Shown here one piece after another: positions 2 through 62,023 of a DNA stretch of 64,000 bases. The notes under the pieces are model-generated. The model did no database searches. It had not been told where the DNA came from and saw only the letters and a list, made by a program, of their open reading frames with translations. The DNA comes from an uncultured Dehalococcoidia bacterium (GTDB lineage: Bacteria > Chloroflexota > Dehalococcoidia > DSTF01 > JACRBR01): positions 75,509 through 139,508 of the forward strand of contig CAZAPT010000003.1 in assembly GCA_964487335.1 (NCBI GenBank). Direction: 5' to 3'. The position numbers were made by a program, and so were the translations under genes. Positions within the stretch are counted from its first letter, which is position 1. Every line of letters begins with the position of its first letter.

Positions 2-1303
2 AACGTTACCGCTACGGCGCTGGACTTCCCTGGCAGCTCTGAGTTCTCGGCGCCGTTCGCCAGCACCTGCTGGGGCACCTGCATGTCCGGGCTCCACGAG
101 GGCGTCTACAACAGCGCTGCTTCGCAATTTAACAACTGCACGGCGTCCGTCACGCAGGTCGGCGATGGCCAGTTAGCTGCTTCCATCACCGGTACCATCG
201 ACTGCACGACCGCACACGGCGGCACGCTCAGCGGGAGCATCAACCAGGCGACCAAAGTCATCAACCTGACGCTCTCGTTTACGTCACCCGTGTCGACCAG
301 CTCGGTGACGGGCACCATGTCGAACGACGGCTCGACCGGCAGCGGCACGTGGCAATGCCTGACCCCATCTCCCTGCGGGCCTTACACATGGTCCAGCGGG
401 CGAGTTGCGGCGTCCGCGAGCGCGATGATCTACCACGCCTCAGGTGGCCGCGTGACAACGGACCTCGGCGACTACCTTGACGTACCGCCGCTGTCCGTCG
501 CTGTTGACACAGCCGTTTCGATTGAAACGATTCCGCTCCACGTCCCGGCCGGCACACCGGCGCCTCCGTGCGTGCTGTCCCGCGCGTTCAGGGGTCAACC
601 GGACGGTACGCAGTTCAACCCCCCGGCAACGTTCGTGGTGCACTATGACCCCACGACCGATCTGCCAACCGGCTGCAGTGCCGCAACGCTGCAGATCATG
701 GTCTACAACTCGGCGTTCGGCCGCTGGATGTTTGTGTCCAGCACGCCCGGCCCGGACCCGAACAGCATTCAGTTCTCAGTCCCGCACTTCACCGACTACG
801 CCGTCTTCGACTGCGGCACCACGGACAACGATGGTCCCGGCGGATTCCAGTGGATCCACGACGGCGTCGGGCCCGAAGGTTCCGTCGACACAGGCCCCGA
901 CGCCTGCGACGCGAACGACGACAACGCGGGCTGCTCGGACGTAACCGAGCTCGGCCCGAGCCACACCCTCGGCGGCCAGCGCGACCCGTTGAACCCGTGG
1001 GACTTCGCCGACATGTGGACGCCGTCGCTGCCCGCTGCCGGCGGGCGCAGCGGGGCGATTACGATCGCCGACGTGATTGCCGTCCTGCCGTGGATTGGCA
1101 CTAGCAAGATCGGCCCGCCGAACTCCAGCGGCCGCAACTACACCGACGACGCGAATGCGAACGGTGTTTGGGATGGCGTGGAGTACGACCGCACCCCGAG
1201 CACGACGCCTGGCCAGCCCTGGCGCCTGAACGGCCCGAACGACGCCGTCTCGATCGCGGACGCCATCGCCGTCCTCGGTTCAATCGGCGATAAGTGCAGC
1301 TGA
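2..1303 (+). CDS. secreted protein, 5' end truncated by window edge; C-terminal ~100-aa dockerin/EF-hand-like module
   Basis: Reading frame is open back to position 2 with no upstream stop, so the listed ATG at 83 is probably internal. C-terminus (991..1300) has two 'AI[TS]IADxIAVL..IG' helices flanking a DANANGVWDGVE loop (DxNxNGxxDGxE). The same module ends the 2643..6110 product. Confidence 0.7.
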   Translation, partial: NVTATALDFPGSSEFSAPFASTCWGTCMSGLHEGVYNSAASQFNNCTASVTQVGDGQLAASITGTIDCTTAHGGTLSGSINQATKVINLTLSFTSPVSTSSVTGTMSNDGSTGSGTWQCLTPSPCGPYTWSSGRVAASASAMIYHASGGRVTTDLGDYLDVPPLSVAVDTAVSIETIPLHVPAGTPAPPCVLSRAFRGQPDGTQFNPPATFVVHYDPTTDLPTGCSAATLQIMVYNSAFGRWMFVSSTPGPDPNSIQFSVPHFTDYAVFDCGTTDNDGPGGFQWIHDGVGPEGSVDTGPDACDANDDNAGCSDVTELGPSHTLGGQRDPLNPWDFADMWTPSLPAAGGRSGAITIADVIAVLPWIGTSKIGPPNSSGRNYTDDANANGVWDGVEYDRTPSTTPGQPWRLNGPNDAVSIADAIAVLGSIGDKCS

Positions 1304-1555: not shown

Positions 1556-2557
1556 CTACGCCCCCGCGATCCCACCCATCATCTCATCCAGCAGGACGAT
1601 GAACTCGCATGTCACTTCGATGCGGATCGCGTCATTCACGTACCCCCCCGTGTTGTCCCATCCGCCGCTGTCCGACTGCTGCGCGATCAGCGCCTCGCCG
1701 ACGCGCTCCGCCAGCTGCAGGTACTTCTCGTCGCCGCTTACCCCGTAGATCAGCGCCGAGCCCCAGCCCACCTTGCCGACCTGCGCCGTCTCGTACATCT
1801 CGTCCAGCACGTTGAACCCGATCGACAGGTACTTCTTCCCCAGCTCCACCCACTCGCGGTCGCCCGTCGCCATCGCCAGCCGCGCCAGGAACGCCGCCGC
1901 GATGCCCATGTTGAAGTACATCTGCCGCCGCTCGTCCACCCGGATCGAGAACAGCCGCTGCCGCTCCGACGGGAAGTCCGTCCGCAGCCCCGCCCCCGGC
2001 TTGTACGAGAAGAACAGCTCCCGCTCCGGGTCCGGCTGCGCGTCCCACACCGTCCGCAGGAACCGCGCGACGTTCTTCGCCTCGCGCAGGTGTCCCGTGA
2101 ACAGGCACGCGTTCCCCGCCTGCGAGCTGTTCAGCAAATCCTGCGCCGACTCCTCGTCGTCGCGACGCGTCCGGAAGCCGCCGTCCTCCGCGTGCTGCAA
2201 CAGCAGCAGGAACTCCATCCCCCGCCGCGTGATGTCGAATCGCCCGAGCTTCTGCGCTCCGCAGATCATCCATGCGTTCGGATACGCGTAGCTGTACTTG
2301 TGCCCGTCGCCTCGCAGCGGCCCCGAGAAGTCGCCGTCGTCGTCGAGCACGTTCTTCGCGACCCACGTCGCGAGCCGGTTCCCGGCCTCCGCCTGCCCGG
2401 CCGCCGCCAGCGCCCATAACGCCTTGTAGTACGGCCCGAGTCCGTCCGCTTCCGGATTGCCGATCGCCCCGTCCGCGCGCTGCTGCTCCAGTACGAAGTC
2501 GATCCCGCGGTCCCGCGACTCCCTCAGCCACTGGACGATGTCCGTCGTCGCCACCAT
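1556..2557 (-). CDS. prenyltransferase/squalene-oxidase-repeat (alpha/alpha-toroid, terpene-cyclase-like) protein
   Basis: Repeated QxxDGG[FW] motifs (QQRADGAIG, QHAEDGGFR, QQSDSGGWDN). ATG at 2557 chosen because the longest ORF starts with TTG. No signal peptide. Confidence 0.45.
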   Translation of the reverse strand: MVATTDIVQWLRESRDRGIDFVLEQQRADGAIGNPEADGLGPYYKALWALAAAGQAEAGNRLATWVAKNVLDDDGDFSGPLRGDGHKYSYAYPNAWMICGAQKLGRFDITRRGMEFLLLLQHAEDGGFRTRRDDEESAQDLLNSSQAGNACLFTGHLREAKNVARFLRTVWDAQPDPERELFFSYKPGAGLRTDFPSERQRLFSIRVDERRQMYFNMGIAAAFLARLAMATGDREWVELGKKYLSIGFNVLDEMYETAQVGKVGWGSALIYGVSGDEKYLQLAERVGEALIAQQSDSGGWDNTGGYVNDAIRIEVTCEFIVLLDEMMGGIAGA

Positions 2558-2642
2558 GTGTGACCTCGATTCAGCTAGCGGACGCAACAAGCGCGCCCGA
2601 AGCCAGTCTAGATCGCCGCGAAGCCGCCCGTGCAGGCCGCCG

Positions 2643-5600
2643 CTAGTTGCACGAGTCGCCGATCGAGCTGAGGCTCACCAGCGCATCGGCGATTGTCACC
2701 GCCCCGCTCGGCGCGCCCGTCCGCCACGGCTTCGACATATCCGCGCTCGGCGACCGGTCGTACTCGTACCCGTCGTTGATGCCGTTACCGTTCAGGTCGG
2801 TGCCATACTTCGCGCCGTTCGTGTTCGCCGTGTTCGGCGACGACGCCGTCGTCCCGATGTACGCCAGCACGGCGATCGTGTCCTGGATGCTGATGGCATG
2901 GTTGCGCGTCCCCGTCATCAGCGAAGGCACCAGTGCCGGCGACGGCACGTCGAAGAAGTCCCAGAAGTTCGATGGGCTGCGGTCGCCGCCCGTCACGTGG
3001 TTCGCACCCATCTCGCGCGCGTCCGGGCATCCGTCCGCATCCGCATCCGGCGGCCCGTTCGTCGTGATCGTCGCCGCGCTGCAGCTCGTCGCGACGCCCA
3101 CCGTCGGGTTGCAGCTCGCGATCTCTTGCGTCGCGCCATGGTTGAAGATGTTCACGTTCGCGAGGCTCAGGATCGATCCGCCCGAAGCTCCCGCCACCGT
3201 GAACATCACCGATGCGATCCGCGTCGCGGTCGGCGCGTCCGGCCCGTTCGTCGGCCCGCTGCTCGTGCAGGAGATCCGCGCTGCTCGCTGCGCCCCGACC
3301 ACGATCGCCCCCACCGGATCCGGCGGCGTGCATGTGAACGTCCGCCCCGTGCTTTCGAGATACGCCTGGTCGGCGTTCGGGTTGCGGTCGCGGCTGTCCC
3401 CGCCGAGCACCGTCGGCGATGTCAGCACGTTCGGGTCATACCGAAGGTCGAAGTTGAACGTCCCGATGTCCGTCACGTTCGAAGCGACCACGTCCACCGT
3501 AAATGTCCCGCTCGACACCGTGCGCGTGCCCTGCACGCCCGCCGTCTGCGGGTCCATGTCGATCTGCACCGCCGCGTTCGATGCGGCCGGCCCCTGCGTC
3601 AGCATGTTGTTGATCTCGACGAACCGCCCCGTCGGGTTCAGGTGATAGTTCCACAGGTGTACCAGCCACCCTGCCCGCGCCGACCACCAGCTCTGCGACC
3701 GCGAGAGGCACGTCTGTTGATCCACGCCCTCCTGCACGGCGCCACCGTTGTTCCAGATGCACAGGTTGTCGTGGTAATGCCACGCGTCGTCGTTCCCAGC
3801 GAAGCCGTCTGGCGGAATCTGCGTCAGCTGGTACGGCACGATGAACATCGCGCCACCCAGCCGCCACCCGCCCGGCGAAGATGCATCCGGCTCGTAGAGC
3901 AGACTCTCGGGGTCCGACGGATCGAAGACACCATCGATCTGCGCGAGGCCCGCGACCCCGCCCTTCACCATGTGCCGGCCCTGCCCGGTGACATACGGCG
4001 TGATCTGCTGGAACCCCGCCGCGTACGCGTTGTTGATGTTCTGGTACGGCTCCATCGCCACCGTCGCCGCGCGGATCTGCCGGTCCACCAGCGGACAGCT
4101 CGCAGTGATGTCATCCAGGGTTCCTTGCACATCGGCGGAGTTGATCACCCGGTCGGAGTTCCAATCGCGCAGCCGCGAGTAGCCCGCGTCGCCGTAGCGT
4201 TTCCCGTAGTCGTTCGCGACGAGCATCACGTCCGCCATGCTCACCGCGCCGTCGCCGTCCACGTCGAAGCAGTAGTACGGGTCGGGATTCAGCGGCGTAG
4301 CCGTCACCGTGATGCGCACGTCGTCGCTCGCCGTGAAACCGTCGTTGTCTGTCACCGTCAGCGTCACGACGTGCGTCCCGAGCGTGAACTGAAGCGAGTC
4401 CACCGGATTCGTCGAGAGCGTCACGCCGTTCTCCGTCCACAGGTAGCTCACGATGAACCCGTCCGCGTCCGAGGATCCGCGCCCGTCGATCGTCACGTGC
4501 GCATGGTCGATGTGCGCGATCGGCGTGATTACGTCCGGCCCGGCATTCGCCACCGGAGGAATCGTCCCGCCACCCGATGCGTAGTTGTAAGCATTCGCCA
4601 GTGTCGCCGTGCCGATGCTGTTCGTCACGGTGACGCTCTTCAGACCCGTGGCGCTCGCACCGGTCGTCCCGGTAATCGTCGTTGAGTTCTGCACCACGAC
4701 GTTCGTCAGCGCCACCCCGCCGATGTCCGCCGTCGTATCCGCCGACGTCGTGAAGTTCGTCCCCGTGATCGTCACGTTCTGCCCGCCGGCTGCTGGACCG
4801 CCCGCCGGGTTGATTCCCGTGACGGTGATCGAGCTCACCGCCGTCTCGTCCGGCTTGAAGAACGTGATCTTGTTGCCGCCGTACTCCGCGACGTAGATCG
4901 TCCCGTCGCTCCCGACGGCCACGTCGAGCGCATTCACAAGCCCCGTCGCCAGCGTCGTGTCTGACACCACCGACAGTCCATCTGCCGAAAGCTTCACCCG
5001 ATGCAGCTGGCTGTCCACCCAGGCCGCGTACAGCAGGTCGCCCTGCATCTGCCCGCCGAACTTGTTCGACGTGTACTCCACGATCCCGTCGGATGACGCC
5101 GGGATGTTCGCTTCGATCGGCTGCGTGTAACCCGCCCCCGGCGCGTCCGTGCCCAGGTGGAACACGCACTGCCGCGGATCCGTCCGCCCTCGGTTCCGGT
5201 TCGGATGCCCGTAGTAGTTCCCCGGCTGGATCAGGTTCAGCTCGTCGTTCCCCGCGGCGTCCGTCGGATACGCCGTCGTGCACGACGCCGATCCCGGCCC
5301 GTACGTGAGGTTCGGCCCGTTGTCCGTGCCGTACAGCTTGCCGTTGCTGTGCCACAGCAGGTCGTATGGATTCCGAAAGCCCGGCGCGTACACGCTCACG
5401 TCGCCGCCCGTCTGGTCCACCGTCGGGCTGTACGTGTTCGGCGGGTTGTAAGTGACGTTGCCGTTGAACCCGGGCGCCTTGATGTCCGCGACGAGGATGG
5501 CGCCCGAAAGCGGCACCTCCTCGCGCTGGAACAGCCCTGGGTTTGGGTTCACGACCCCCGCGTTCGTCGTGCTCCCCTGCGCGATGTACAGCTTCCCGTC

Positions 5601-6110
5601 CGGCCCGAACGTCAGACCGTTCGTCTCGTGCCCGGAGTTCGACACCGGCAGTCCCGTGATCATGTCCGTCTTCGTCGCATACCCGGGTCCGCTGATTTTC
5701 GTGATCTTCCCCGAGAACGCGCCCGCCGGCGCCTGTCCGGCGTCGCCGAAGCCCGAGATCGTGTTGCTGATGTAGATCGGCGGCGGCGACGACGCGTCCG
5801 TCGGGTCGAACGCGATTCCGAAGATCTCCTGGATCTCGGTGTTCGTCGTGATCTGCTGGACCGCCGTCACGGCCTCCTTCGTGTTCGGATCGAGCGTCAG
5901 CGCCTGTAAGGCGCCGTTCGTATCCGCGACGTACAGCCGCCCATCCGGCCCCACGGCGACCGCGCTCGGATTCGTCGTCGCGAAGCCCGCCCCGGCGACC
6001 GTCCCGCGCGTGAAGTTGATGGGCTGGACGGCGCTCGCTGTGCCTGCATTTGGGAGCATCGCGGCGAACGCGGCAACGGCGGCGGTCGCCATAGCGAGAA
6101 TCCGGAGCAC
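2643..6110 (-). CDS. large secreted multidomain protein: signal peptide, SGL/NHL-like beta-propeller, IPT/TIG, PKD, dockerin, His/Trp-rich domain, cohesin-like domain, C-terminal dockerin/EF-hand-like module
   Basis: Signal peptide (…AFAAMLPNAGTASA). Propeller-type repeats (GPDGRLYV/GPDGKLYIA/NGKLYGTDNG). TIG-like segment (NVTITGTNFT…). PKD-like segment (VTLTVTDNDG). Canonical dockerin repeats DVDGDGAVSMADVMLV and DWNSDRVINSADV (~4105..4290). Cohesin-like segment FTVDVVASNVTDIGTFNFDLRYDPNVL (~3000..3530). C-terminal module 2646..2972 shared with 2..1303. GTG start. Confidence 0.85.
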   Translation of the reverse strand: MLRILAMATAAVAAFAAMLPNAGTASAVQPINFTRGTVAGAGFATTNPSAVAVGPDGRLYVADTNGALQALTLDPNTKEAVTAVQQITTNTEIQEIFGIAFDPTDASSPPPIYISNTISGFGDAGQAPAGAFSGKITKISGPGYATKTDMITGLPVSNSGHETNGLTFGPDGKLYIAQGSTTNAGVVNPNPGLFQREEVPLSGAILVADIKAPGFNGNVTYNPPNTYSPTVDQTGGDVSVYAPGFRNPYDLLWHSNGKLYGTDNGPNLTYGPGSASCTTAYPTDAAGNDELNLIQPGNYYGHPNRNRGRTDPRQCVFHLGTDAPGAGYTQPIEANIPASSDGIVEYTSNKFGGQMQGDLLYAAWVDSQLHRVKLSADGLSVVSDTTLATGLVNALDVAVGSDGTIYVAEYGGNKITFFKPDETAVSSITVTGINPAGGPAAGGQNVTITGTNFTTSADTTADIGGVALTNVVVQNSTTITGTTGASATGLKSVTVTNSIGTATLANAYNYASGGGTIPPVANAGPDVITPIAHIDHAHVTIDGRGSSDADGFIVSYLWTENGVTLSTNPVDSLQFTLGTHVVTLTVTDNDGFTASDDVRITVTATPLNPDPYYCFDVDGDGAVSMADVMLVANDYGKRYGDAGYSRLRDWNSDRVINSADVQGTLDDITASCPLVDRQIRAATVAMEPYQNINNAYAAGFQQITPYVTGQGRHMVKGGVAGLAQIDGVFDPSDPESLLYEPDASSPGGWRLGGAMFIVPYQLTQIPPDGFAGNDDAWHYHDNLCIWNNGGAVQEGVDQQTCLSRSQSWWSARAGWLVHLWNYHLNPTGRFVEINNMLTQGPAASNAAVQIDMDPQTAGVQGTRTVSSGTFTVDVVASNVTDIGTFNFDLRYDPNVLTSPTVLGGDSRDRNPNADQAYLESTGRTFTCTPPDPVGAIVVGAQRAARISCTSSGPTNGPDAPTATRIASVMFTVAGASGGSILSLANVNIFNHGATQEIASCNPTVGVATSCSAATITTNGPPDADADGCPDAREMGANHVTGGDRSPSNFWDFFDVPSPALVPSLMTGTRNHAISIQDTIAVLAYIGTTASSPNTANTNGAKYGTDLNGNGINDGYEYDRSPSADMSKPWRTGAPSGAVTIADALVSLSSIGDSCN

Positions 6111-6334
6111 GAGCGCCTCCTCCCGGCTGCGGGCGGGTTATGGGGGCTCCGCCATAGCATTGGAGGCGTCACACTCGCCAAGCATCGCGGGCTCGGGATT
6201 CGCGGCGCGCCCTCGACTCGCTGAGAACGAAAAAATTGTTGCGGAAGGGGCGTCCAGAGCGCGCCGCCCCGTCGTATAGTAGGCGCTGGATTCACCGGCC
6301 CGGATGGCCGCATCCCCGCAACTGGAGCCCTACG

Positions 6335-7258
6335 ATGCGTTACGTCATCTCGCTGCTCGCCGCAGTCGGCATTGCCACTCTCGCGCTCGTCTCAGCCGGA
6401 TCGCCCACCGCTCTCGCGGCCTTCCACTGCATGCGCGTCCATGCGGTGATGGCCGGCTACAACGGCAACAACAACATCCAGTATGTCGAGCTGCGGATGG
6501 ACACCGGCGGCCAGAGCTTCGTCGGCGGCCACGACATTAAGTTCTACTCCGGGGATCCGTCGGTCCCCGCAAACCTCAAGGCCACCTTCACCTTTCCGGC
6601 CAATGTCATGGGCAACGCGGGCACCGGAGACTCGATCCTCATCGCCACCGCGGAGTTCAACAGCACCGTGATGGGAGGAACTGCCGACTTCGTATTCAAG
6701 GCTGCGCCCGATCCGCAAGCGAACACTGTCGGCTCGAATGGCGGTGATCCCCTCCACCCGATTCAGAGCCCGAACGGCCTCGTGTATTTCGCGTCGGGCA
6801 ACGACAACTGCGACCCCGATTTCGTCGCTAGCCCTGGCGAGGTCGACTCCGTCGGGTACGGCACGACCCCCGCATTCTTCGGTGCCTCCGCACACGCGCT
6901 CCCAAGCCCTAACACCAACGGCGTGCTGCGCCTCAACAACATCAACACGACTCCCGCGAACAACAGCACCGAGTACGGCATCAACACCGTGTCCCCCACG
7001 ACGTTCAGCGTGGCTCCCGCGAATATCACCACCGACCTGACTACTCCGCGAAACAACGCGCGCACCGTCCTGGCCTTCCCGACGGCAGGCGGCCCCGTCG
7101 GCGGCATCTCGCAGGATCCACAGCTCGCACCTCCCGCCGACGCCACGTCATCGGGGGGCGGCAGCTCACGATGGTGGATCTACGCGTTGAGCGCCGCAGC
7201 CGCCGCCTTCGCGGCCGCATCTGTCGGCGCCTGGCGCCTCCGCGCGAAGCGCCGGTAG
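6335..7258 (+). CDS. secreted hypothetical protein with GlyGly-CTERM-like C-terminal anchor (GGG + hydrophobic helix + RLRAKRR)
   Basis: ATG at 6335 followed by a signal peptide (MRYVISLLAAVGIATLALVSAGSPTALA). C-terminus reads SSGGGSSRWWIYALSAAAAAFAAASVGAWRLRAKRR. Confidence 0.65.
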   Translation: MRYVISLLAAVGIATLALVSAGSPTALAAFHCMRVHAVMAGYNGNNNIQYVELRMDTGGQSFVGGHDIKFYSGDPSVPANLKATFTFPANVMGNAGTGDSILIATAEFNSTVMGGTADFVFKAAPDPQANTVGSNGGDPLHPIQSPNGLVYFASGNDNCDPDFVASPGEVDSVGYGTTPAFFGASAHALPSPNTNGVLRLNNINTTPANNSTEYGINTVSPTTFSVAPANITTDLTTPRNNARTVLAFPTAGGPVGGISQDPQLAPPADATSSGGGSSRWWIYALSAAAAAFAAASVGAWRLRAKRR

Positions 7259-7325
7259 CCGCATAGATCCGCCGTAGCTGCGGAGCGTCAGCTCCGCCTC
7301 ACGCGGCCGAAAGATCCGAAACGTA

Positions 7326-7357
7326 GGACGGGCCTTCAGGCCCGTCCTTCCTATTCC
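7326..7357 (+). terminator. rho-independent-type terminator (GGACGGGCC-TTCA-GGCCCGTCC + T-rich tail)
   Basis: Perfect 9-bp stem and 4-nt loop 68 nt after the stop at 7258. A second hairpin GCGGAGC-GTCA-GCTCCGC lies at 7277..7297. Confidence 0.6.
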
Positions 7358-7459
7358 CGGCGCATCCCTCCATGCGCACGCACAAGCGCGCCTCTCTACT
7401 GATTCAGGCGGTACCATCCTGACCGTCGCCTTAGGCTGGACGCGTCTTCCGAGAATGCG

Positions 7460-8284
7460 ATGACCGAATCCTCGACACGGCCAGAGTCGGACCGCCCCCA
7501 CTACGACGTCCACCCCGGAAATAGCCCATACTGCCTCTTCGTCCACGGCTATCTCTCCAGCCGCGCCCAGTGGATCCCGAACCTCACGGCGCTCTCGAAG
7601 GTCGTCCGGCCCGTCGTCCTCGAGCTGCTCGGCCACGGCCGCTCGCCGTCACCCGAAGATCCTCGCGATTACTCGCCCGCCGCCTACATCGAGCACTTCG
7701 AGCGCATCCGCACTGAGCTCGGCGTCGAAAAGTGGCTCATCTGCGGCCACTCGCTCGGCGCCGCGCTTACCCTGCGCTACGCGCTCGACCGTCCGGATCG
7801 CGTCGTCGCCCAGGTCTTCACGAACTCCATGTCCGCGCTCGCCCCGGACGAATGGAGCGCTCGTGTGCGACCCGCGATGCAAGCGCAGGCGCGCATGTTC
7901 GAGGAGCGCGGCCGCTCCGCCATCGAAGAGCATCCGCTGAACCCGCTCCGCTCCCGCCGCCTCGCGAACGACGTCCGCCGCGCGTTCGAAGCCGATCTCC
8001 TGCTCGCCGATCCGCTCGGCCTCGCCCGCACCGGCCTCTACACGGTGCCGGACTCGCCCGTCCGCTCGCGCATCGCCGGCAACACCGTGCCCTCCCTGCT
8101 CATAGCCGGCGATCGCGAAGCCCGCTTCGCCGAGTCCCGCGAGTTCGCCGAACGCAACATGCCCCACCTGCAGGTCGTCCGTCTCGACGGCGGCCACGCC
8201 ATCAATCTCGATGCCCCAGAAGCGTTCAACAGCGCCATCGTCACGTTCTTTGCGGAGCACGCGCGTGTGGGGACGGCGCCGTGA
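7460..8284 (+). CDS. alpha/beta-fold hydrolase
   Basis: GHSLG nucleophile-elbow motif. The hydrophobic core LFVHGY falls at the expected oxyanion-hole position. Confidence 0.8.
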   Translation: MTESSTRPESDRPHYDVHPGNSPYCLFVHGYLSSRAQWIPNLTALSKVVRPVVLELLGHGRSPSPEDPRDYSPAAYIEHFERIRTELGVEKWLICGHSLGAALTLRYALDRPDRVVAQVFTNSMSALAPDEWSARVRPAMQAQARMFEERGRSAIEEHPLNPLRSRRLANDVRRAFEADLLLADPLGLARTGLYTVPDSPVRSRIAGNTVPSLLIAGDREARFAESREFAERNMPHLQVVRLDGGHAINLDAPEAFNSAIVTFFAEHARVGTAP

Positions 8285-8406
8285 TCCGGCCTGCTGAATG
8301 ACGACGTGATCGGATTGGTGACGAAAAGACGCCTCGACACGCGCGCCGCGGTCGCCTGCAGCCGACGCTTGTTCCTCGAGAGGCCCCGCTGCCAAACGCG
8401 TACGAG

Positions 8407-9204
8407 CTACGCCGTGAGCGCGTAGATAATCCCCAGCCCACCAACCGCTACCGAGAGCACCAGCGTTTGCCCCCAGCTCGGCGGCGGCGCCAGCTTGTAA
8501 ACCAGCACAACGCCGCTAATGACGACGATCCACCCGAAGCTCGACATCCCGATGATCACCATCGCCGCCATCAGCGCCGCGCTGCATCCGATACAGCTCA
8601 GGCCGTACTTCGCGCCGACGACGGCACCGCTGCGCGTCAGGTTGAAGGGCAGCGGTCCGTGGAGCGCGCACGCTTCCCGGCAGCTTGCCTCACTCGCCCG
8701 CTTGATCGGCGTCAGTCCGTACACGCCCGCCAGTGCCAGCGCCGCTCCGCCGACCACACTCTTCTCGAGCCACGACATTGGCACCGGCGTGAGCAGCAAA
8801 TAACAGATCAGCCCGAACGCCAGCCACATCGCAAGATAGGTGAGCCCCAGCACCGCCGTCGCAGATCGCCACCCCCTCCGTCGCTCGGAGCTCTCGACGA
8901 ATGCGAACACAAGCGGCGTCGCGGACGGCAACATCATCGCCGTCATCATCACCACCCAGTCCGTCGAGAACGTCTTGATCGAGCCAAGCCCGCGGCGGCC
9001 CATCGTCATGGTCATGTCCGCGCTCGAGTGCGTCCGTCCCAGCATCTGCGCCCACGCCACTCCGGCGACGATCACGAAGGCCAGCACCGCCAGCGCCGGA
9101 GGAGCTAATTCGATGGGCTCGCGTCGCTGACCCGGGACAGCGGCGATCCACAGGCCGGCACGCAGGACAGAACCCGCGCCGCCTGGCTGGTCTGACAAGG
9201 CCAC
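8407..9204 (-). CDS. integral membrane protein (DUF2182-like, putative metal-binding)
   Basis: Multiple transmembrane helices with conserved Cys/His-containing loops. GTG start; family assignment is from memory. Confidence 0.55.
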   Translation of the reverse strand: MALSDQPGGAGSVLRAGLWIAAVPGQRREPIELAPPALAVLAFVIVAGVAWAQMLGRTHSSADMTMTMGRRGLGSIKTFSTDWVVMMTAMMLPSATPLVFAFVESSERRRGWRSATAVLGLTYLAMWLAFGLICYLLLTPVPMSWLEKSVVGGAALALAGVYGLTPIKRASEASCREACALHGPLPFNLTRSGAVVGAKYGLSCIGCSAALMAAMVIIGMSSFGWIVVISGVVLVYKLAPPPSWGQTLVLSVAVGGLGIIYALTA

Positions 9205-9231: not shown

Positions 9232-9960
9232 TCAGTCCTGGTACTCGTCCCGGCGCCGCACCCACACCGCCGCGGCGCCATCGGTCTCGTCCCGGCCCTT
9301 TGGAACCAGGTCCATGTAGTGGTACGCGACGTTCAACATGTCCAGCCCTCGCGCGTACGTCGAATAGGTGTGATAGATCTGCCCGCCCTCCTTGAGGAAG
9401 ACGCTGGCTCCGGGCGCCTCCGATCCGGACCATGGGTTCGACCGATAGTTGTAGTCCACCTTCCCCGATGCAAGCTGATCCGGACTGAACGACACGCCGT
9501 AGTCGTAGTTGAAGTCGCTCTCGGCCGAGGACAACCACGGGAACGTCCAGCCCATTCTCTTCTTGTATGCAACGAGCTTCGCGTAGGGCGCATGCGACAC
9601 CGCGACGATCGTGATGTCGCGATGGTCAAGGTGGACCGTGACACCGTTGAAGTTGTCCATCCAGAACGAGCAGACGTAGCACGGCTCATCAGTCGTCCAC
9701 GGCGTATGCTCCCCCGCCGTCTCCGGGTTGAACATGGCGTGGTAGACAACCAGCTGGTTGCGCCGTCCGAAAAGTTCGCTCAGCGATTGCCGGCCATGCT
9801 CGCCCTCGAAGACATACTCCTTCTCGACGACCTCCCACGGAAGCTCGCGACGCTCCTTGCTGAGCTGGTCGCGAAGCCTCGTGAACTCCTTCTCCTTCGC
9901 GAGGTGCTTCTTTCGAGCCGCGATCCACTTGTCATGCGTGACTACTGCGTGCGTTGGCAT
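9232..9960 (-). CDS. DUF899 thioredoxin-like family protein
   Basis: KWIAARKKHLAKEKEFTRLRD…LVVYHAMF…CxxCSFWMDN…MGWTFPWLSS matches the DUF899 pattern. ATG start. Lies 27 nt downstream of the preceding membrane-protein gene on the same strand. Confidence 0.75.
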   Translation of the reverse strand: MPTHAVVTHDKWIAARKKHLAKEKEFTRLRDQLSKERRELPWEVVEKEYVFEGEHGRQSLSELFGRRNQLVVYHAMFNPETAGEHTPWTTDEPCYVCSFWMDNFNGVTVHLDHRDITIVAVSHAPYAKLVAYKKRMGWTFPWLSSAESDFNYDYGVSFSPDQLASGKVDYNYRSNPWSGSEAPGASVFLKEGGQIYHTYSTYARGLDMLNVAYHYMDLVPKGRDETDGAAAVWVRRRDEYQD

Positions 9961-11954: not shown

Positions 11955-12173
11955 CTACGGCGGCCCCACCGTGCAGTTCGCCCCCACCTGCTGCAGCGCC
12001 ACGATCGCATCGCCGATCTGCACCGCTCCGCTCAGTGGCCCGCTCCGGTACGGCTTCGCGTTGTCGTTGTTCGGGTTGATGCTCTCGCTGTGCGCGATCG
12101 CCGACTCCGCAGCGAGAAGGCACGCCAGTGTGATGGCGGGTAGCACGGGGACCAGCAGCGTAAAGCTGGGCAT
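11955..12173 (-). CDS. 72-aa secreted peptide carrying the same C-terminal motif as the dockerin-like modules (…SGAVQIGDAIVALQQVGANCTVGPP)
   Basis: ATG start, signal peptide (MPSFTLLVPVLPAITLACLLAAESAIA). The mature ~45 aa align with …GAVTIADALVSLSSIGDSCN and …DAVSIADAIAVLGSIGDKCS from the two large proteins. Confidence 0.55.
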   Translation of the reverse strand: MPSFTLLVPVLPAITLACLLAAESAIAHSESINPNNDNAKPYRSGPLSGAVQIGDAIVALQQVGANCTVGPP

Positions 12174-16145: not shown

Positions 16146-17279
16146 TCACCACTGCACGAACATCGGCATGACCACGTGGATGTAGTTGTCGTTCTCCAGC
16201 GGCCGGATGACACCCGGCTGCGACGGCCCCGTCGTCTCCAGCGCGACGCGCCCGCCGTCCAGCACCTGCAGCACATCCTGTAGGTACTTGCCGTTGAACG
16301 CGATCTTCGCGGCTTCGCCTTCGACCTGCGCGTCCAGCTCGCCCGAGTTGTCGCCGATCTCCTCCGCGCGCGCAGCGATCGTCATCCGTCCGGGAGTCGA
16401 GTCTTCGCCCGACTGGAACGTGATGCGCACGATCCCGCTGCCATCCCGCGCGAAGATCGACGCGATCTTCGTCTCCTGCAGGAAGTCCCGCACCTCCACC
16501 ACCGCCCTGCTCCCCCACTCCTTCGGGATCAGCCTGCTGTAGTCCGGGAACGTCCCTTGGATCAGCTGCGCCACCAGCTCGACGTCCTTGAGCTGGAACA
16601 ACACCTGCGTCTTCGCGGCGTTGAACGTCATCTTCACCGGCTCGTCCTGGTCCTGAAGAAGGCGGCTCAACTCCGAAAGCGCTCGCGCCGGCACGATGAC
16701 TTCCTGCCGCTCGGCCGCCTTCTTCTTCAGCTGCAGGTGCCGCACCGCGAGCCGGAAGCCGTCCGCCGCCGCCAGCGTCAGCCGGTCCCCCTCCACCACC
16801 AGGTCGATGCCCGTTAGCACCGGCCGCGAGTCATCCGTCGCCGCCGAGAACACCACCTGCGAGATCGCTTCCCGCAGCATCTTCGCGTCGAGGTCGAACG
16901 TCGCGCCGTCTTCGACCGTCGGGATTGGCGGGAAGTCGTCCGCGTCCATCCCGCCGATCGTCGCCTCATTCCGCGCGCACGTCACCTTCATCTGCCGCGC
17001 GCGCGGCGCGATCGCCATCGTGATCTTCTCCGCCGGCAGCGAATTTACGAAGTCACTCAACAGCCGCGAAGGCACCGTGATCGCGCCCTCTTCTTCGATC
17101 TGTCCGCCGATCCAGCAACTCAGCGCGATGTCGAGGTTCGTCGCCGCAAGCTTGATGCGCCCGTGGTCCGTCGCGATCAGTACGTTCGATGTGATGGGAA
17201 GCGTGCTGCGCACCGCAACTGCGCGGCCGACGATCCCGAGGCCGCGCGCGAGGTTCTCCTGAAGACACGTAACCTTCAT
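16146..17279 (-). CDS. dnaN: DNA polymerase III subunit beta (sliding clamp)
   Basis: Full-length beta-clamp similarity (MKVTCLQENL… through …VVMPMFVQW). ATG at 17279. Confidence 0.9.
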   Translation of the reverse strand: MKVTCLQENLARGLGIVGRAVAVRSTLPITSNVLIATDHGRIKLAATNLDIALSCWIGGQIEEEGAITVPSRLLSDFVNSLPAEKITMAIAPRARQMKVTCARNEATIGGMDADDFPPIPTVEDGATFDLDAKMLREAISQVVFSAATDDSRPVLTGIDLVVEGDRLTLAAADGFRLAVRHLQLKKKAAERQEVIVPARALSELSRLLQDQDEPVKMTFNAAKTQVLFQLKDVELVAQLIQGTFPDYSRLIPKEWGSRAVVEVRDFLQETKIASIFARDGSGIVRITFQSGEDSTPGRMTIAARAEEIGDNSGELDAQVEGEAAKIAFNGKYLQDVLQVLDGGRVALETTGPSQPGVIRPLENDNYIHVVMPMFVQW

Positions 17280-17499
17280 CGCGCTCACCTGTGTAACCAT
17301 TTGCGCCGAGTATAAGCCTCGCGCAGAGAAGCGACAATAGATCAACACCCATGATCAATTGCTGCGCGATCACTTCGTGCGCGCGACGCGCATAGACGCA
17401 GCGATGAGGTGGAGTCGATCGCTGCGTCTGGCGCGGGGAGAACCACTGTTACGTCAATCGGAACGCATTGCCCCAACAATGCGCGTGCGCCCGTTACGT

Positions 17500-57543: not shown

Positions 57544-60500
57544 TTAGTCGCCCAGCAACCCGCGCTTCGCACCCCACGCCGCGATCTGGGCACGAGAAGT
57601 GAATCCGAGCTTGGTGAGGATGTTTCCGACGTGCGTTTCGACGGTCCGCTCGCTGAGCACGAGCTCCTCGGCGATCTGCCGGTTACCGTGGCCCCGCGTC
57701 ACCAGCGCTGCGACCTCACGCTCGCGTTCCGTCAGGCCCTCCCACTCCCGCTTCGCCGCCCGCCGCGCCGTGGGCGCGCGAACCTGCAACAGTGCATCGC
57801 CCGCATCGAGGAACCGCTGGCGAGCCTCAGCGTCGAGCCCTTCGGCGAGCTCTAGCGCCGCCGCGCGCGCCTCGTCGCTCTTGGCCTCGGATTCGGCGCG
57901 GCGATCTGCCGCAGCATAGGCGCGTGAAAGCGCGCACTGCGTTCGCCAGAGCCACGGCGACGTCCCGTGAACGGCAGCGGATGCTTCGGCCTGCTTCAGC
58001 AGATCGCAAGCCGAAGCGTGATCGCCGATCGCGGAGAATGCGTGAGCCCGGGTGACCAGTAGCGCCGAAGGCAAGCGCGAAGGCAGTGGGTCGATGATCG
58101 TGCTCAGAAGCCGAGCGGTCAGCGCCAGCGCGTCGTCAGCGCGCTTCTCAGCCACCAGCAGCTCGGCCATCGCCCACGCAACGCGTCGTTCAGGCAGCGT
58201 CTGCCGCGAGCAGGATTCCAGCGAACAATCGCCAAGTATCTCGCGCGCCGCTACGGTATCTCCGCGCTGGAGGTACGCGAGTGCGAGATACGCGCTCACG
58301 TTGCCGATCCACCACGCGGACTTCAGGGATCGCACCAGGGGAAGCGCTGCCTCGAGATGTCGGATCGCGTCATCCGTCTGCAGCATCAGCCAGTGCAGCT
58401 GCCCGAGCGAGAAGTGCCCTCCAGTGATCCACTGCTCATGCTGGATCTCCGTCGCGATGCGCAGCCCCTTCTCGATGAGCGCCATCCCCTCCGCGACCGC
58501 TCCGAACGACCCGACCGCACCGCCCAGCGTCCAGTACGCGAACGCGCTTCCCACGGATGAGCCGCTGCGCTCGGCGAGCCTGAGCGCGGCTTCACCGTCG
58601 CTACGCACGCCATCGAGCGTGCGCGTGCTGGCGCAGACCGTCTCGGCCATGCTGGGACTGCCGTATGTCGTCCGGCCGGAGAGGGCCGACATCAACCGTT
58701 GCTCGTCCCCGAGTTCCAACAGCAATTCGATCGCCTCGCCGTAGTGGTCTACACAGCGCGGAAGATCGCCATGCATGCCGTACGCCATCGCGAGTAGATC
58801 GAGCGTCTCGGCAATACCGTGTCGATCGTCCGCGCTACTGAACATGTCCAGTGCGGCTCGATGCTGCTCGATTCCCTCTGACGTCCGCCCAACGTTGATC
58901 AGCCAGTTCCCTAGCCGGTTCTGGCTCCGGCCGAGGACCGCGGTCTCCTGACCGGCTCGGGCGAGGTCGAGCGCGCCCTGGTAGAACTCACCGGCGCGGT
59001 CGTAATCGCGCACCGACCAAAGCGCTCCGAGGTCAATGAGCGCCTGCCACTCGCCCGCCTGATCGCCCGACCCGCGTGACAGTCGCAGCGCGGCTTCGTG
59101 ATCGTCTCGCGCCCCGTCGAAGTTGCCGAGGGCGTCGTGTGCCCGTCCTCGCGCGCTGTATATCCACGCCGAAGTTCCGACCCCCGTATGGCTGGCTGCT
59201 TCGAGCGCGCGAGTGAAGTGCGCCATCGCCGCAGCGGGAGAGAACAGCTCCTGCGCCTGTTCGCCGGCGCGGCACGCGTACTCGAACGCCCGATCCCACG
59301 TGTTGGCCTCGTATGTGTGCATCGCCAGCTCGCCCAGCCGCGACTCGCCGGATGCGTGACCGACCGATTCCAGCGCGGCCGCGATCTCCGCGTGCACGGC
59401 GCGCCGTTGGCTTCGCAGTAACGAGGAGTACACCGCCTGCTGCGTTAGCGCGTGCCGGAATGCGAAGCGGTCCACCGCCTCCTCGACGACGAGCTGCGCG
59501 TCGACCAGCTCTTTCACGAGATGCAGAAGATCGTGCTCGTCCTCGTCGCTGAGTCGGGCCAGCAACGGCAGGTCGAAGCGTCGCCCCGCGACCGACGCTC
59601 GGATCAGGACGCGCTGCGCCCCGGGGCTCAGCTGTGCCGTGCGACGCCGAACCGCCTCCTGCACGCTCCTCGGTATCTGATGCTCGGCGAGCGTTCCCGG
59701 CAACGCGGCGCCGTTGTGCTGGGGAAGATCGTTCGATGTGGCGAGCGACTTCAGCACTTCCTCGATGAAGAACGGATTGCCGTCCGTGAGCTCGTACAGG
59801 ACCTGCACGAAGTCGTCCCGGAGTAGTTGTTCGCCGTCGAGCATCGCCCGGACCATCAACCTCACGTCGGATCGTGAGAGCGGTCGAAGCGTGAAGTCAC
59901 GCGCTAGCCGCCTTCGTTCCAGCTCCGCGAGAAAGCTCGCGAGTTGCCCGCTGGCTTCGTCGACGCGGTACGTCAGTAACAACGCGAGCGGAAGTTCTTC
60001 GGCGCGCCGCGCGAGCTGCAGCAGGAACTCGATGCTCGCATCGTCGCTCCAGTGCAAATCCTCGAAGACCACCAGCAACGGGCCGTCGCTGCATAGCCGC
60101 ACGATAGGCTGCAACAGCGCTTGCAGGAGTCGGCGCTTCTCTTGCTCTGGCTCGTTCGTGGTGACGTCGTCGATCGTGCCGAGAGGGGCGCCAAGCTCTG
60201 GCACGAGCTTGACGATGTCCGATGACTCGCGACCGATGACGATCTTGAGTTCGTCATCGGGTAGGCTCAGCGCGAACGTGCGCCACAGGTCGGCCACCGG
60301 CGCGAACGGCACTGCCGCATCCCCCTCGAAGCACCCTGCAGTGAGGATCTTCACGCCCGCATGGATCTCACGCGCGCGGGCGACAAGCTCCCGAACCAGC
60401 CTCGACTTCCCGACGCCTGCCTCACCGGCGACCGTGATCGTCCGCCCCCGACCTTCGATGACCTCGGCAAACGCCGCCGCGAAGTCGGTCAGATATCTGT

Positions 60501-60552
60501 CGCGCCCGATCAGGATGGGACAGGTAATCGTGGCCTCAGACATGGTCTCCAT
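57544..60552 (-). CDS. large ATP-binding LuxR-family regulator (LAL/MalT-like: AAA+ domain, TPR-like region, C-terminal LuxR helix-turn-helix)
   Basis: Walker A motif VAGEAGVGKS near the N-terminus. C-terminal LTEREREVAALVTRGHGNRQIAEELVLSERTVETHVGNILTKLG. ATG at 60552/60543 chosen because the upstream part of the ORF is Arg-rich noncoding-like. Confidence 0.8.
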   Translation of the reverse strand: METMSEATITCPILIGRDRYLTDFAAAFAEVIEGRGRTITVAGEAGVGKSRLVRELVARAREIHAGVKILTAGCFEGDAAVPFAPVADLWRTFALSLPDDELKIVIGRESSDIVKLVPELGAPLGTIDDVTTNEPEQEKRRLLQALLQPIVRLCSDGPLLVVFEDLHWSDDASIEFLLQLARRAEELPLALLLTYRVDEASGQLASFLAELERRRLARDFTLRPLSRSDVRLMVRAMLDGEQLLRDDFVQVLYELTDGNPFFIEEVLKSLATSNDLPQHNGAALPGTLAEHQIPRSVQEAVRRRTAQLSPGAQRVLIRASVAGRRFDLPLLARLSDEDEHDLLHLVKELVDAQLVVEEAVDRFAFRHALTQQAVYSSLLRSQRRAVHAEIAAALESVGHASGESRLGELAMHTYEANTWDRAFEYACRAGEQAQELFSPAAAMAHFTRALEAASHTGVGTSAWIYSARGRAHDALGNFDGARDDHEAALRLSRGSGDQAGEWQALIDLGALWSVRDYDRAGEFYQGALDLARAGQETAVLGRSQNRLGNWLINVGRTSEGIEQHRAALDMFSSADDRHGIAETLDLLAMAYGMHGDLPRCVDHYGEAIELLLELGDEQRLMSALSGRTTYGSPSMAETVCASTRTLDGVRSDGEAALRLAERSGSSVGSAFAYWTLGGAVGSFGAVAEGMALIEKGLRIATEIQHEQWITGGHFSLGQLHWLMLQTDDAIRHLEAALPLVRSLKSAWWIGNVSAYLALAYLQRGDTVAAREILGDCSLESCSRQTLPERRVAWAMAELLVAEKRADDALALTARLLSTIIDPLPSRLPSALLVTRAHAFSAIGDHASACDLLKQAEASAAVHGTSPWLWRTQCALSRAYAAADRRAESEAKSDEARAAALELAEGLDAEARQRFLDAGDALLQVRAPTARRAAKREWEGLTEREREVAALVTRGHGNRQIAEELVLSERTVETHVGNILTKLGFTSRAQIAAWGAKRGLLGD

Positions 60553-60753
60553 CGTTGGACAGTCGGCGACGTTGGCTCGGTCGCACACGCGCGAAAAGAG
60601 CATATCACTGCATGCCTGGCGCAACCGGTGGGACCAGCGCCACCCGCGGGTCACGTCGAGAGCAATGTCCGCACGCAAGCGCTGACTCTCGCCGACCAGC
60701 GGGAATCCGGTTCCCCACAAGGCATCAGCCCAGTGACGATCAGTACTCGGCCG

Positions 60754-60864
60754 GTGATTACCGACGTCGCGCCCTCCTTCGTAGTGGATGATGTCGCCCG
60801 CACAGCGGCGTGGTACCGCGCCGCGCTTGGTTTGGAGATCGGCCTCCTCGTCAGAGGAAGGTGA
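60754..60864 (+). pseudogene. N-terminal fragment of a VOC/glyoxalase-family gene (truncated remnant)
   Basis: VITDVAPSFVVDDVARTAAWYRAALGLEI resembles a glyoxalase N-terminus, but the ORF stops after ~36 codons. It lies within a 480-bp divergent intergenic region. Confidence 0.25.
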
Positions 60865-61030
60865 TGCACGATCGCCGCTCCCGATAGCACCCTGGTTTCC
60901 ATATAGTAGTCTCCTGTTCTTCGAATTGCGGCGAAGGCGACGTTGTGGCTCCGACCGCGCCGTCAATCGCGCGACGGCTTCAGGTTCAGCGGGGAGTCGC
61001 GTACGTCGTTCGAGTGAACCGGAGGTTCTG

Positions 61031-62023
61031 ATGCCAGTCGACAGTCGAGAAGTGCATCTCGTCGCGCGGCCCGAGGGAATGCCCAAGCCATCGGACTTCG
61101 CCGTAGTCGAGACGACCGTGCCGGACGCAGGCGAAGGCCAGATACTCGTGCAGAACCTCTACAACAGCATCGACCCGGCGACGCGGCCACGGCTCGCGCA
61201 ACAGCCACTCGAGACGCCGCCGTGGGGCTACGCCATCGGACGCGTAGCGCAGTCACGGCATCCCGACTATCGCGAAGGTGACATCGTTCAGGGCCTCGGG
61301 TATCGCGAGGCCTACGTCTCGGACGGCCGCGGCATCGCTAAGGTCGCGACGGATCCATCGTTCCCGCTAACGGTGTACCTTGGCGCGCTTGGGGTGGCGG
61401 GGTTCGTCGCTTACGGCGGGCTGCTGGAGGTCGGCAAACTTCAGCAGAGCGAGCAGGTGTTCGTTTCGACCGCCGCGGGAGCGGTCGGCTCCTTCGCCGT
61501 CCAGATCGCGAAGTTGCGCGGATGTTACGTGATCGGAAGCACGGGCTCGGACGAGAAGTGCCGGTTCCTGACGGACGAGCTGGGCATCGACGCCGCTGTC
61601 AATTACAAATCGCAACCGATCCGCAAGGCGCTAAAGGACGCCGCGCCAAAGGGCATCGACGTTTACTTCGACAATGTCGGCGGCGATCATCTCGATGCCG
61701 CGCTCCCGCGCATGAACTTGCTTGGCCGCGTCGCGGTATGCGGAATGATCTCGGCGTATAACACCGAGGGAGCGATCTCCGCGCCGGTGACGACGCTCTC
61801 AAACATCATCTACAGCCGCGTGACGATCCGTGGCTTCGTGACGGCTGACTTCCCGCACCTGCGCGAGCGGTTCGCGGCGGAGATGGGCGGCTGGCTGAAG
61901 GACGGCACCGTGAAGTACCGCGAGACGATTCTTGAGGGCATCGAGAGCTCGCCCGCCGCGCTGATCGCCATGCTCAGCGGCGAAAACATCGGCAAGACGA
62001 TGGTGCGCGTGCTCTCTCGGTAG
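61031..62023 (+). CDS. NADP-dependent oxidoreductase, MDR superfamily (YncB / prostaglandin-reductase-like)
   Basis: GGAGG upstream of the ATG. Cofactor-binding motif AAGAVGSFAVQIAKLRG and the MDR fold pattern. Confidence 0.8.
   Translation: MPVDSREVHLVARPEGMPKPSDFAVVETTVPDAGEGQILVQNLYNSIDPATRPRLAQQPLETPPWGYAIGRVAQSRHPDYREGDIVQGLGYREAYVSDGRGIAKVATDPSFPLTVYLGALGVAGFVAYGGLLEVGKLQQSEQVFVSTAAGAVGSFAVQIAKLRGCYVIGSTGSDEKCRFLTDELGIDAAVNYKSQPIRKALKDAAPKGIDVYFDNVGGDHLDAALPRMNLLGRVAVCGMISAYNTEGAISAPVTTLSNIIYSRVTIRGFVTADFPHLRERFAAEMGGWLKDGTVKYRETILEGIESSPAALIAMLSGENIGKTMVRVLSR

Follow-up and report, generated by a model that had tools for sequence, protein, structure and literature searches.

A cohesin- and dockerin-bearing GSDH-type propeller protein, putatively a surface-displayed enzyme, in Dehalococcoidia-type Chloroflexota

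The DNA analysed here is a stretch of 64,000 nucleotides from an uncultured Dehalococcoidia bacterium (assembly GCA_964487335.1, contig CAZAPT010000003.1, positions 75,509 to 139,508 of the forward strand), referred to below as the window. On its minus strand, the open reading frame (ORF) at 2643..6110 specifies a protein of 1155 amino acids (aa), followed by a stop codon, in which cohesin and dockerin modules occur in a single chain. We consider it probable, at roughly 60%, that this protein is a secreted, surface-displayed multidomain enzyme of the GSDH type from Dehalococcoidia-type Chloroflexota, which makes noncellulosomal use of its cohesin and dockerin and is not a scaffoldin. Eight modules follow one another along the chain: a signal peptide, a GSDH/sGDH-type propeller, a TIG domain, a PKD domain, a dockerin, a domain with four conserved histidines (the 4-His domain), a cohesin and a flexitail. 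The GTG start codon lies 8 nt downstream of a ribosome-binding site (GGGAGGAGG), and a search of 5.8 billion proteins returned full-length homologs with 53-68% identity. The existence of homologs up to 68% identical over their full length indicates that the ORF, described in an earlier note on this DNA that was drawn up by inspection of the sequence and its ORF list, is a real gene. The G+C content is 62-69% throughout the window. All module coordinates given below are on the minus strand unless stated otherwise.

The propeller (residues 47-409; 4884..5972) is six-bladed and scores 80.3 bits against the Pfam family PF07995, well above the cut-off of 25, which places it among the GSDH domains; NHL repeats are also detected. 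It had previously been called an SGL/NHL-type propeller; the clan is correct, but GSDH names the domain more precisely. In a phmmer search the propeller matched soluble glucose dehydrogenase (sGDH, 1c9u) with E=1.4e-9. In the alignment, H161 coincides with the catalytic His of the KDHQSG motif of 1c9u, R246-N247 coincide with the RN of GHRNPQ, and NDELNLIQPGNYYGHPN aligns with DDEINLIVKGGNYGWPN. We take the aligned sGDH residues to be the general base His144 and the pair Arg228/Asn229 that contacts pyrroloquinoline quinone (PQQ). Family-wide, conservation at the positions of H161, R246 and N247 is 90% or higher, and the three form the nearly invariant alignment columns H222, R324 and N325. With its catalytic His and Arg-Asn pair matching those of sGDH in the alignment, the propeller looks catalytically competent.

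The protein has about 74 relatives, all from Chloroflexota/Dehalococcoidia metagenome-assembled genomes (MAGs). Far from being unique, its architecture is that of a recurrent uncharacterised family of Chloroflexota. Source databases name the members only "glucose/arabinose dehydrogenase" or "PQQ-dependent sugar dehydrogenase". Matches at the genome level come from soil and groundwater MAGs, the closest of them showing 78% identity; in this closest relative (MAG MFD02199.bin.2.91, 6001-8776) the coding region is split into two frames that switch near residue 636, which indicates a frameshift originating from either a pseudogene or an assembly error. The conserved core of the family consists of propeller, TIG, PKD, dockerin and 4-His domain. 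In 46 of the 74 relatives the chain ends right after the 4-His domain (…AGWLVHLWNYxPNPxGRFVEVN), whereas 27 (about one third) extend further, into a cohesin followed, in complete sequences, by a Ca-binding tail. Among these 27, the tail is a flexitail in 19 and consists of TSP3 repeats with a dockerin-like end in Cys-Pro in seven; one protein (P0036) stops at the cohesin. Every complete cohesin-bearing form thus has a Ca-binding tail, and every such tail ends in Cys. The cohesin and flexitail also travel together in at least five retrieved proteins that have neither dockerin nor 4-His module. By this census, the cohesin and its Ca-binding tail are an optional C-terminal cassette of an enzyme-like protein and not its organising principle, a pattern that fits acquisition of the cassette, with its dockerin-like tail, by a sub-lineage for attachment.

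The conserved partner of the propeller in this core is the hitherto undescribed 4-His domain (residues ~673-840; 3591..4094). It had been described as a His/Trp-rich segment of 200 aa and left unplaced; it does form a discrete domain, but one of about 170 aa. The earlier note had called for a structure prediction, and the AlphaFold2 (AF2) model of the domain is a confident one (predicted local distance difference test score, pLDDT, 93.2; predicted template modelling score, pTM, 0.87), with two N-terminal helices followed by about nine strands. No Pfam or NCBIfam model matched the domain, either here or in scans of some 25 other His/Trp-domain proteins. Likewise, PDB searches with the His/Trp segment gave nothing significant by single sequence and nothing by family profile, and no solved fold relative of the domain was found. 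A cupin reading of the motif G772-x5-H-x-H was dropped, as the fold matches include no cupin and the sequence lacks a fitting second cupin motif.

A phmmer search of 1.84 billion cluster representatives returned 787 relatives of the 4-His domain at E<=1e-3 and 152 at E<=1e-10; these being clusters at 50% identity, 787 is a lower bound for the family. Most matches are "hypothetical proteins" of 180-450 aa from Actinomycetota and Chloroflexota in which the domain is C-terminal. The four histidines, H713, H778, H780 and H818, are all present in 295 of 309 complete domains. H713 is absent in eight, and all eight lack H818 too (Fisher p=2e-14, not corrected for phylogeny). C784 and C801, present in 309 and 308 of the 309, respectively, form what reads as an invariant disulfide. 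Standalone members have signal, transmembrane or lipobox N-termini, and the actinobacterial ones have His-rich tails (GHGHG, DDHHH, CAHGH). The genomic context of three standalone His/Trp genes revealed no conserved neighbours. Occasional fusions are seen elsewhere: P0266 joins the domain to a plastocyanin/amicyanin-type cupredoxin, and P0232 joins it to a PSCyt1 c-type cytochrome; both of these proteins have a Gly in place of the first His of the W-H-x-H motif. The cupredoxin and cytochrome c fusions make a metal or redox domain probable. Altogether, the 4-His domain is probably an extracytoplasmic metal-binding, possibly redox, domain, and it is a candidate for a new metal-binding fold in Actinomycetota and Chloroflexota.

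Between the PKD and 4-His domains lies the internal dockerin (4095..4271), bracketed by Cys614 and Cys672. We looked for the hallmark of type I dockerins, two tandem F-hand Ca2+ loops with D or N at positions 1, 3, 5, 9 and 12, each followed by a helix. Both loops conform: loop 1 reads D616-V-D-G-D-G-A-V-S-M-A-D627 (D616-x-D-x-D-x3-S-x2-D627) and loop 2 reads D649-W-N-S-D-R-V-I-N-S-A-D660 (D649-x-N-x-D-x3-N-x2-D660). In the alignment of the query with 73 relatives, C614, D616, D627, D649, D660 and C672 are invariant (74/74). PF00404 (Dockerin_1) appears in the precomputed annotation of about 20 of 74 homologs. A family profile built from 30 sequences and run against the PDB matched the dockerin 2y3n_B over both repeats (profile positions 11-65 to chain positions 8-62) with E=9.4e-10, and a second solved dockerin, 5k39_B, with E=5.5e-6; calmodulins rank below both. 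On the strength of the loops and the profile match, the earlier call of a two-repeat dockerin stands, despite a Pfam score just below the cut-off (see below).

The cohesin (residues ~846-1015; 3066..3575) has conserved cysteines at 927, 948, 1000 and 1010. Its Pfam model, PF00963, is present in the precomputed annotation of five long-form homologs. A PDB search with the single sequence gave nothing significant; when a family profile of 20 sequences was used, nearly all matches were proteins with cohesin modules (E=9e-4 to 3e-3). A further indication came from an AF2 model of residues 845-1155, spanning cohesin and flexitail (pLDDT 88.7, pTM 0.67). All of the top 50 Foldseek matches of this model in the PDB are cohesins, with target-normalised TM scores up to 0.72, the best being 2xdh, a noncellulosomal cohesin of Archaeoglobus fulgidus (E=9.8e-10). 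The AF2 model, the Foldseek matches and the profile agree on a nine-stranded jelly-roll beta-sandwich of cohesin topology. The cohesin assignment, which the earlier note had worded as "cohesin-like", stands; PF00963 reaches 26.1 bits, over part of its profile, when the segment is scanned in isolation (see below).

At the C-terminus, residues ~1017-1155 (2646..3062) make up a flexitail domain. The NCBIfam model NF041520 scores 75.8 bits (cut-off 40) over residues 1022-1147 of 1155, that is, at the C-terminal position expected of this family. The region had been taken for a terminal EF-hand-like module; a Ca-binding-type module is indeed there, but it is a flexitail and not a generic EF-hand. 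Its layout comprises a TSP3-like DxDxDGCxDxxE loop and then two dockerin-like loop-helix units (…ISIQDTIAVLAYIG… and …GAVTIADALVSLSSIG…), the whole being closed by Cys1028 and Cys1154. In the AF2 model the flexitail has a pLDDT of 92-98. The first unit of short variants, DFYDTNGDGVVNLLDDVLAVV, is simply a dockerin F-hand. Alignment of flexitail and dockerin profiles with hhalign gave a probability of 84.5% (E=6.9e-6), with both helices and the terminal Cys aligned, and the three best PDB profile matches of the flexitail are dockerins (E=0.004-0.012). From these comparisons we infer that the flexitail is an expanded relative of the dockerin. The polypeptide thus has a genuine cohesin and a genuine dockerin in a noncellulosomal setting, as the earlier note maintained, together with a third, dockerin-related module.

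As a C-terminal module, the flexitail is specific to Chloroflexota. Sampled proteins that have nothing else in common (VWA, metallophosphatase, lysyl oxidase, TSP3) mostly carry it at their very C-terminal end, a distribution over unrelated enzymes that fits a targeting or anchoring role. The exception is a group of four proteins (P0081, P0084, P0087 and P0088) that combine a GSDH propeller with a subtilisin (S8 peptidase) and in which a short flexitail or dockerin-like module, named dockerin by Pfam, is internal. A literature search on "flexitail" returned only unrelated papers on antibody engineering.

These features can be combined into a mechanism, putative at each step. With PQQ/Ca2+, the propeller would oxidise a sugar or aldose-type substrate outside the cell. 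The 4-His domain would bind a metal and might act as the conserved functional partner of the propeller, for example as electron acceptor or second catalytic site. Ca2+-dependent attachment to other proteins would be the task of the internal dockerin and of the cassette of cohesin and flexitail, which would hold the enzyme on the cell envelope or bind it to molecules of its own kind. A bolder version sees in the 4-His domain a new extracellular metal (probably copper) redox family, fed with electrons by the hard-wired PQQ propeller, with cohesin and dockerin/flexitail positioning the redox machine on the Chloroflexota surface. We regard this extension as improbable in its entirety. If it were true, the protein would be a single-chain analogue of the pairs formed by a dehydrogenase and an oxidative metalloenzyme (AA12 or cellobiose dehydrogenase, CDH, with lytic polysaccharide monooxygenase, LPMO), and the cupredoxin and c-type cytochrome fusions would represent alternative electron feeders of the 4-His domain.

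Several observations weigh against the reading as a surface-displayed GSDH-type enzyme. The propeller is no member of the curated NCBIfam family of PQQ dehydrogenases, TIGR03606, scoring 53.8 bits against a cut-off of 434.55; with a score so far under the cut-off, the substrate and even the use of PQQ stay predictions. The statistic on joint His loss, being uncorrected for phylogeny, counts on the same side. Against a cut-off of 22.9 bits, Dockerin_1 falls short both in the whole protein (18.2 bits) and in the isolated segment (22.7 bits). For the cohesin, PF00963 is not reported in the Pfam scan of the whole protein, and the 26.1 bits obtained with the isolated segment 850-1030 (E=1.1e-5, cut-off 24.1) involve only profile positions 11-68 of 139. 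A search of the 64-kb window with hidden Markov models (HMMs) built from the family alignments revealed no other dockerin, cohesin or 4-His module. Finally, a dockerin-like module precedes the 4-His domain in 18 proteins that are not GSDH proteins, which raises the prospect that the dockerin is a structural Ca module and not a free ligand of cohesins.

This last point leads to an alternative in which the dockerin-like module would belong structurally to the 4-His unit, as a sub-domain stabilised by Ca2+ and clasped by a disulfide, leaving the flexitail alone, if anything, to meet cohesins. Besides the 18 proteins that pair the two modules in the absence of a GSDH propeller, it draws support from the invariant Cys614 and Cys672, which clasp the module straight onto the start of the 4-His domain, and from the two-thirds of family members that have a dockerin and no cohesin. 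The 4-His domain is, however, independent of the dockerin in 224 proteins that contain it without any dockerin-like module, and the match to bona fide dockerins that bind cohesins extends over both repeats of the module. We view this alternative as a possible one, with odds clearly below even. A different kind of objection concerns catalysis itself. TIG, PKD, cohesin and dockerin modules typically serve in adhesins or as spacers; this, along with the low TIGR03606 score, would suit an adhesin whose propeller is non-catalytic and lectin-like (as in GSDH-fold proteins of the HHIP type) and whose other modules are purely adhesive. The alignment of the catalytic His and Arg-Asn with those of sGDH and the conservation of all three positions speak against it, as does the conserved fusion to the 4-His domain, whose pairing elsewhere with cupredoxin or cytochrome c points to redox chemistry; we think it very unlikely that the protein is such an adhesin.

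The surface scaffold emphasised in the earlier note would arise if the cohesin bound the dockerin or flexitail of its own chain or of a neighbour, in cis or head-to-tail in trans, so that the propeller would be the cargo or adhesive head of a polymeric layer. One chain does combine a cohesin with two dockerin-type modules; all complete cohesin-bearing members have a dockerin- or TSP3-type Ca-binding tail after the cohesin, the cohesin-flexitail cassette recurs in the five or more proteins mentioned above, and the adjacent gene also has a flexitail. Yet there is a single cohesin, and the 46 members that lack it have the dockerin all the same, the shared core being propeller-TIG-PKD-dockerin-4-His domain. 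Nor does the window offer other cohesins or dockerins, or the neighbourhood any conservation. In the AF2 model of cohesin plus flexitail, the pTM is 0.67 even though both domains are confidently folded, which does not indicate a fixed intramolecular cohesin-flexitail complex. Self-assembly into a scaffold is, in our judgement, unlikely. A surface-displayed enzyme thus remains the preferred interpretation, and a scaffoldin is disfavoured because there is only one cohesin, the cohesin is optional, partner modules are missing from the window and synteny is not conserved. The view that this is no classical cellulosome holds: we found a single cohesin, no carbohydrate-binding module (CBM), no further cohesin or dockerin in the 64 kb, and no carbohydrate-active enzyme (CAZyme) gene among ten ORFs scanned at 12-31 kb or among the neighbours scanned. 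ORFs scanned farther along the window include dnaN, a thiolase and an amidohydrolase.

The remaining modules of the 1155-aa protein agree with what had been claimed for them. Residues 1-27 form a Sec-type signal peptide (6030..6110), read off the translation as MLRILAMATAAVAAFAAMLPNAGTASA, ending in TASA and followed by VQP; homologs have comparable hydrophobic N-termini with an A-x-A end and then a conserved VQPINF motif. The IPT/TIG Ig-like domain (residues 429-499; 4614..4826) matches PF01833 with 46 bits. The PKD domain (residues 519-602; 4305..4556) is K319L-like, matching PF22352 with 34 bits over residues 537-602 and PF18911 with 22.4 bits.

The genes around the protein had been invoked as part of the scaffold, an argument that did not survive comparison: two orthologous loci (L001 and L002) share none of the neighbours found in the window. 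The "second module-bearing protein" (83..1303, plus strand) has only a flexitail in common with the 1155-aa protein (917..1297, plus strand; NF041520, 69.8 bits); HMMs from the family alignments detected no cohesin, dockerin or His/Trp module in it. Starting at window position 2, its frame stays open up to 1303; it reaches the window edge, where the gene is probably cut. The 406-aa version lacks a signal peptide and has a Cys-rich N-terminal part with no Pfam match. The 344-aa product of the downstream gene at 1556..2590, described as an intracellular alpha/alpha-toroid, scores 16.7 bits against Prenyltrans (cut-off 26.5), so that the toroid call is a weak one, and none of the 13 related loci compared contains a match to the gene. 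In addition to the 1155-aa protein, two flexitail signals are found in the window, namely the adjacent gene and a 72-aa ORF at 11955..12173 (minus strand). The latter consists of a hydrophobic signal-like N-terminus and the last flexitail loop-helix unit only (…KPYRSGPLSGAVQIGDAIVALQQVGANC…), matching flexitail HMM positions 104-138 with E=2.5e-7; the ORF may encode a mini-protein or be what remains of a gene.

On the other side, the divergent neighbour at 6236..7258 (plus strand) encodes a signal peptide, a beta-rich region with no Pfam match, a C-terminal transmembrane helix and a basic tail (…WWIYALSAAAAAFAAASVGAWRLRAKRR). A 52%-identical homolog adjoins the ortholog in one locus (L003, 9702-10442, MAG DASRHM010000118), and this is the only recurrent neighbour that we have seen. 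Farther along, 2-3 kb from the gene, 8407..9204 encodes a membrane protein of the PpoB2-type "copper chaperone" family (PF09948, 115 bits) and 9232..9960 a thioredoxin-like protein of the DUF899 type (both minus strand). They may be connected with the putative metal domain, but neither has a match in the 13 related loci. The gene for the beta subunit of DNA polymerase III, dnaN, lies at 16146..17348 (minus strand). Its presence may mean that the origin of chromosomal replication is not far from the window, over which the cumulative GC skew changes monotonically. A second large ORF of 1180 aa at 57544..61086 (minus strand) encodes an AAA_16-TPR-LuxR (GerE) type regulator unrelated to the present finding.

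Compared with soluble PQQ-dependent dehydrogenases, represented by sGDH 1c9u, the Thermus protein 2ism and PF07995, the propeller is alike in its six blades, catalytic His, PQQ-pocket Arg-Asn and 80-bit score, whereas the whole protein departs from them in its low TIGR03606 score (53.8 versus 434.55 bits) and in six extra modules (TIG, PKD, dockerin, 4-His, cohesin, flexitail). Another analogue may be the fungal AA12 PQQ-dependent pyranose dehydrogenase, an extracellular GSDH-fold quinoprotein with fused cytochrome and CBM. By analogy, both would be extracellular GSDH-fold quinoproteins whose permanent fusion partners are targeting modules and a distinct domain of the electron-transfer or metal kind; in AA12 this domain is a cytochrome b, whereas here it is the 4-His domain, in a bacterial lineage and with no link to LPMOs. 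Cohesins and dockerins are also the building blocks of the scaffoldins and anchoring proteins of clostridial cellulosomes, which have tandem cohesins and a CBM. The present protein, from a high-GC Chloroflexota genome, has one cohesin and no CBM, and no dockerin-bearing glycoside hydrolases were found nearby.

Noncellulosomal cohesins provide the nearest precedent for that module. According to PMC5244752, citing Peer et al. 2009, cohesin and dockerin modules are found in every domain of life, and what they do outside the cellulosome is not known. With 2xdh the cohesin described here shares, beyond the best structural match, the absence of a cellulosome context, standing outside any system of scaffoldin and glycoside hydrolases; it differs in being joined to a GSDH-type propeller and a 4-His domain, in its four conserved Cys and in the flexitail or TSP3-type tail of complete forms. 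Noncellulosomal cohesins and dockerins being common, the family offers a tractable case, in which a cohesin and a dockerin-related tail are found on a putative enzyme whose short paralogous forms lack both. As to the "flexitail domain-containing putative surface protein" of NF041520, the C-terminal 130-140 aa conform to it, nearly all sampled relatives having the domain in the same C-terminal position. Beyond what that family records, the flexitail is found here to be related to dockerins and often to come after a cohesin, and the link to dockerins suggests how Chloroflexota may attach surface proteins. New relative to the known systems are the link between flexitail and dockerin, the Ca-binding tail that comes after the cohesin in all complete forms, and the 4-His domain.

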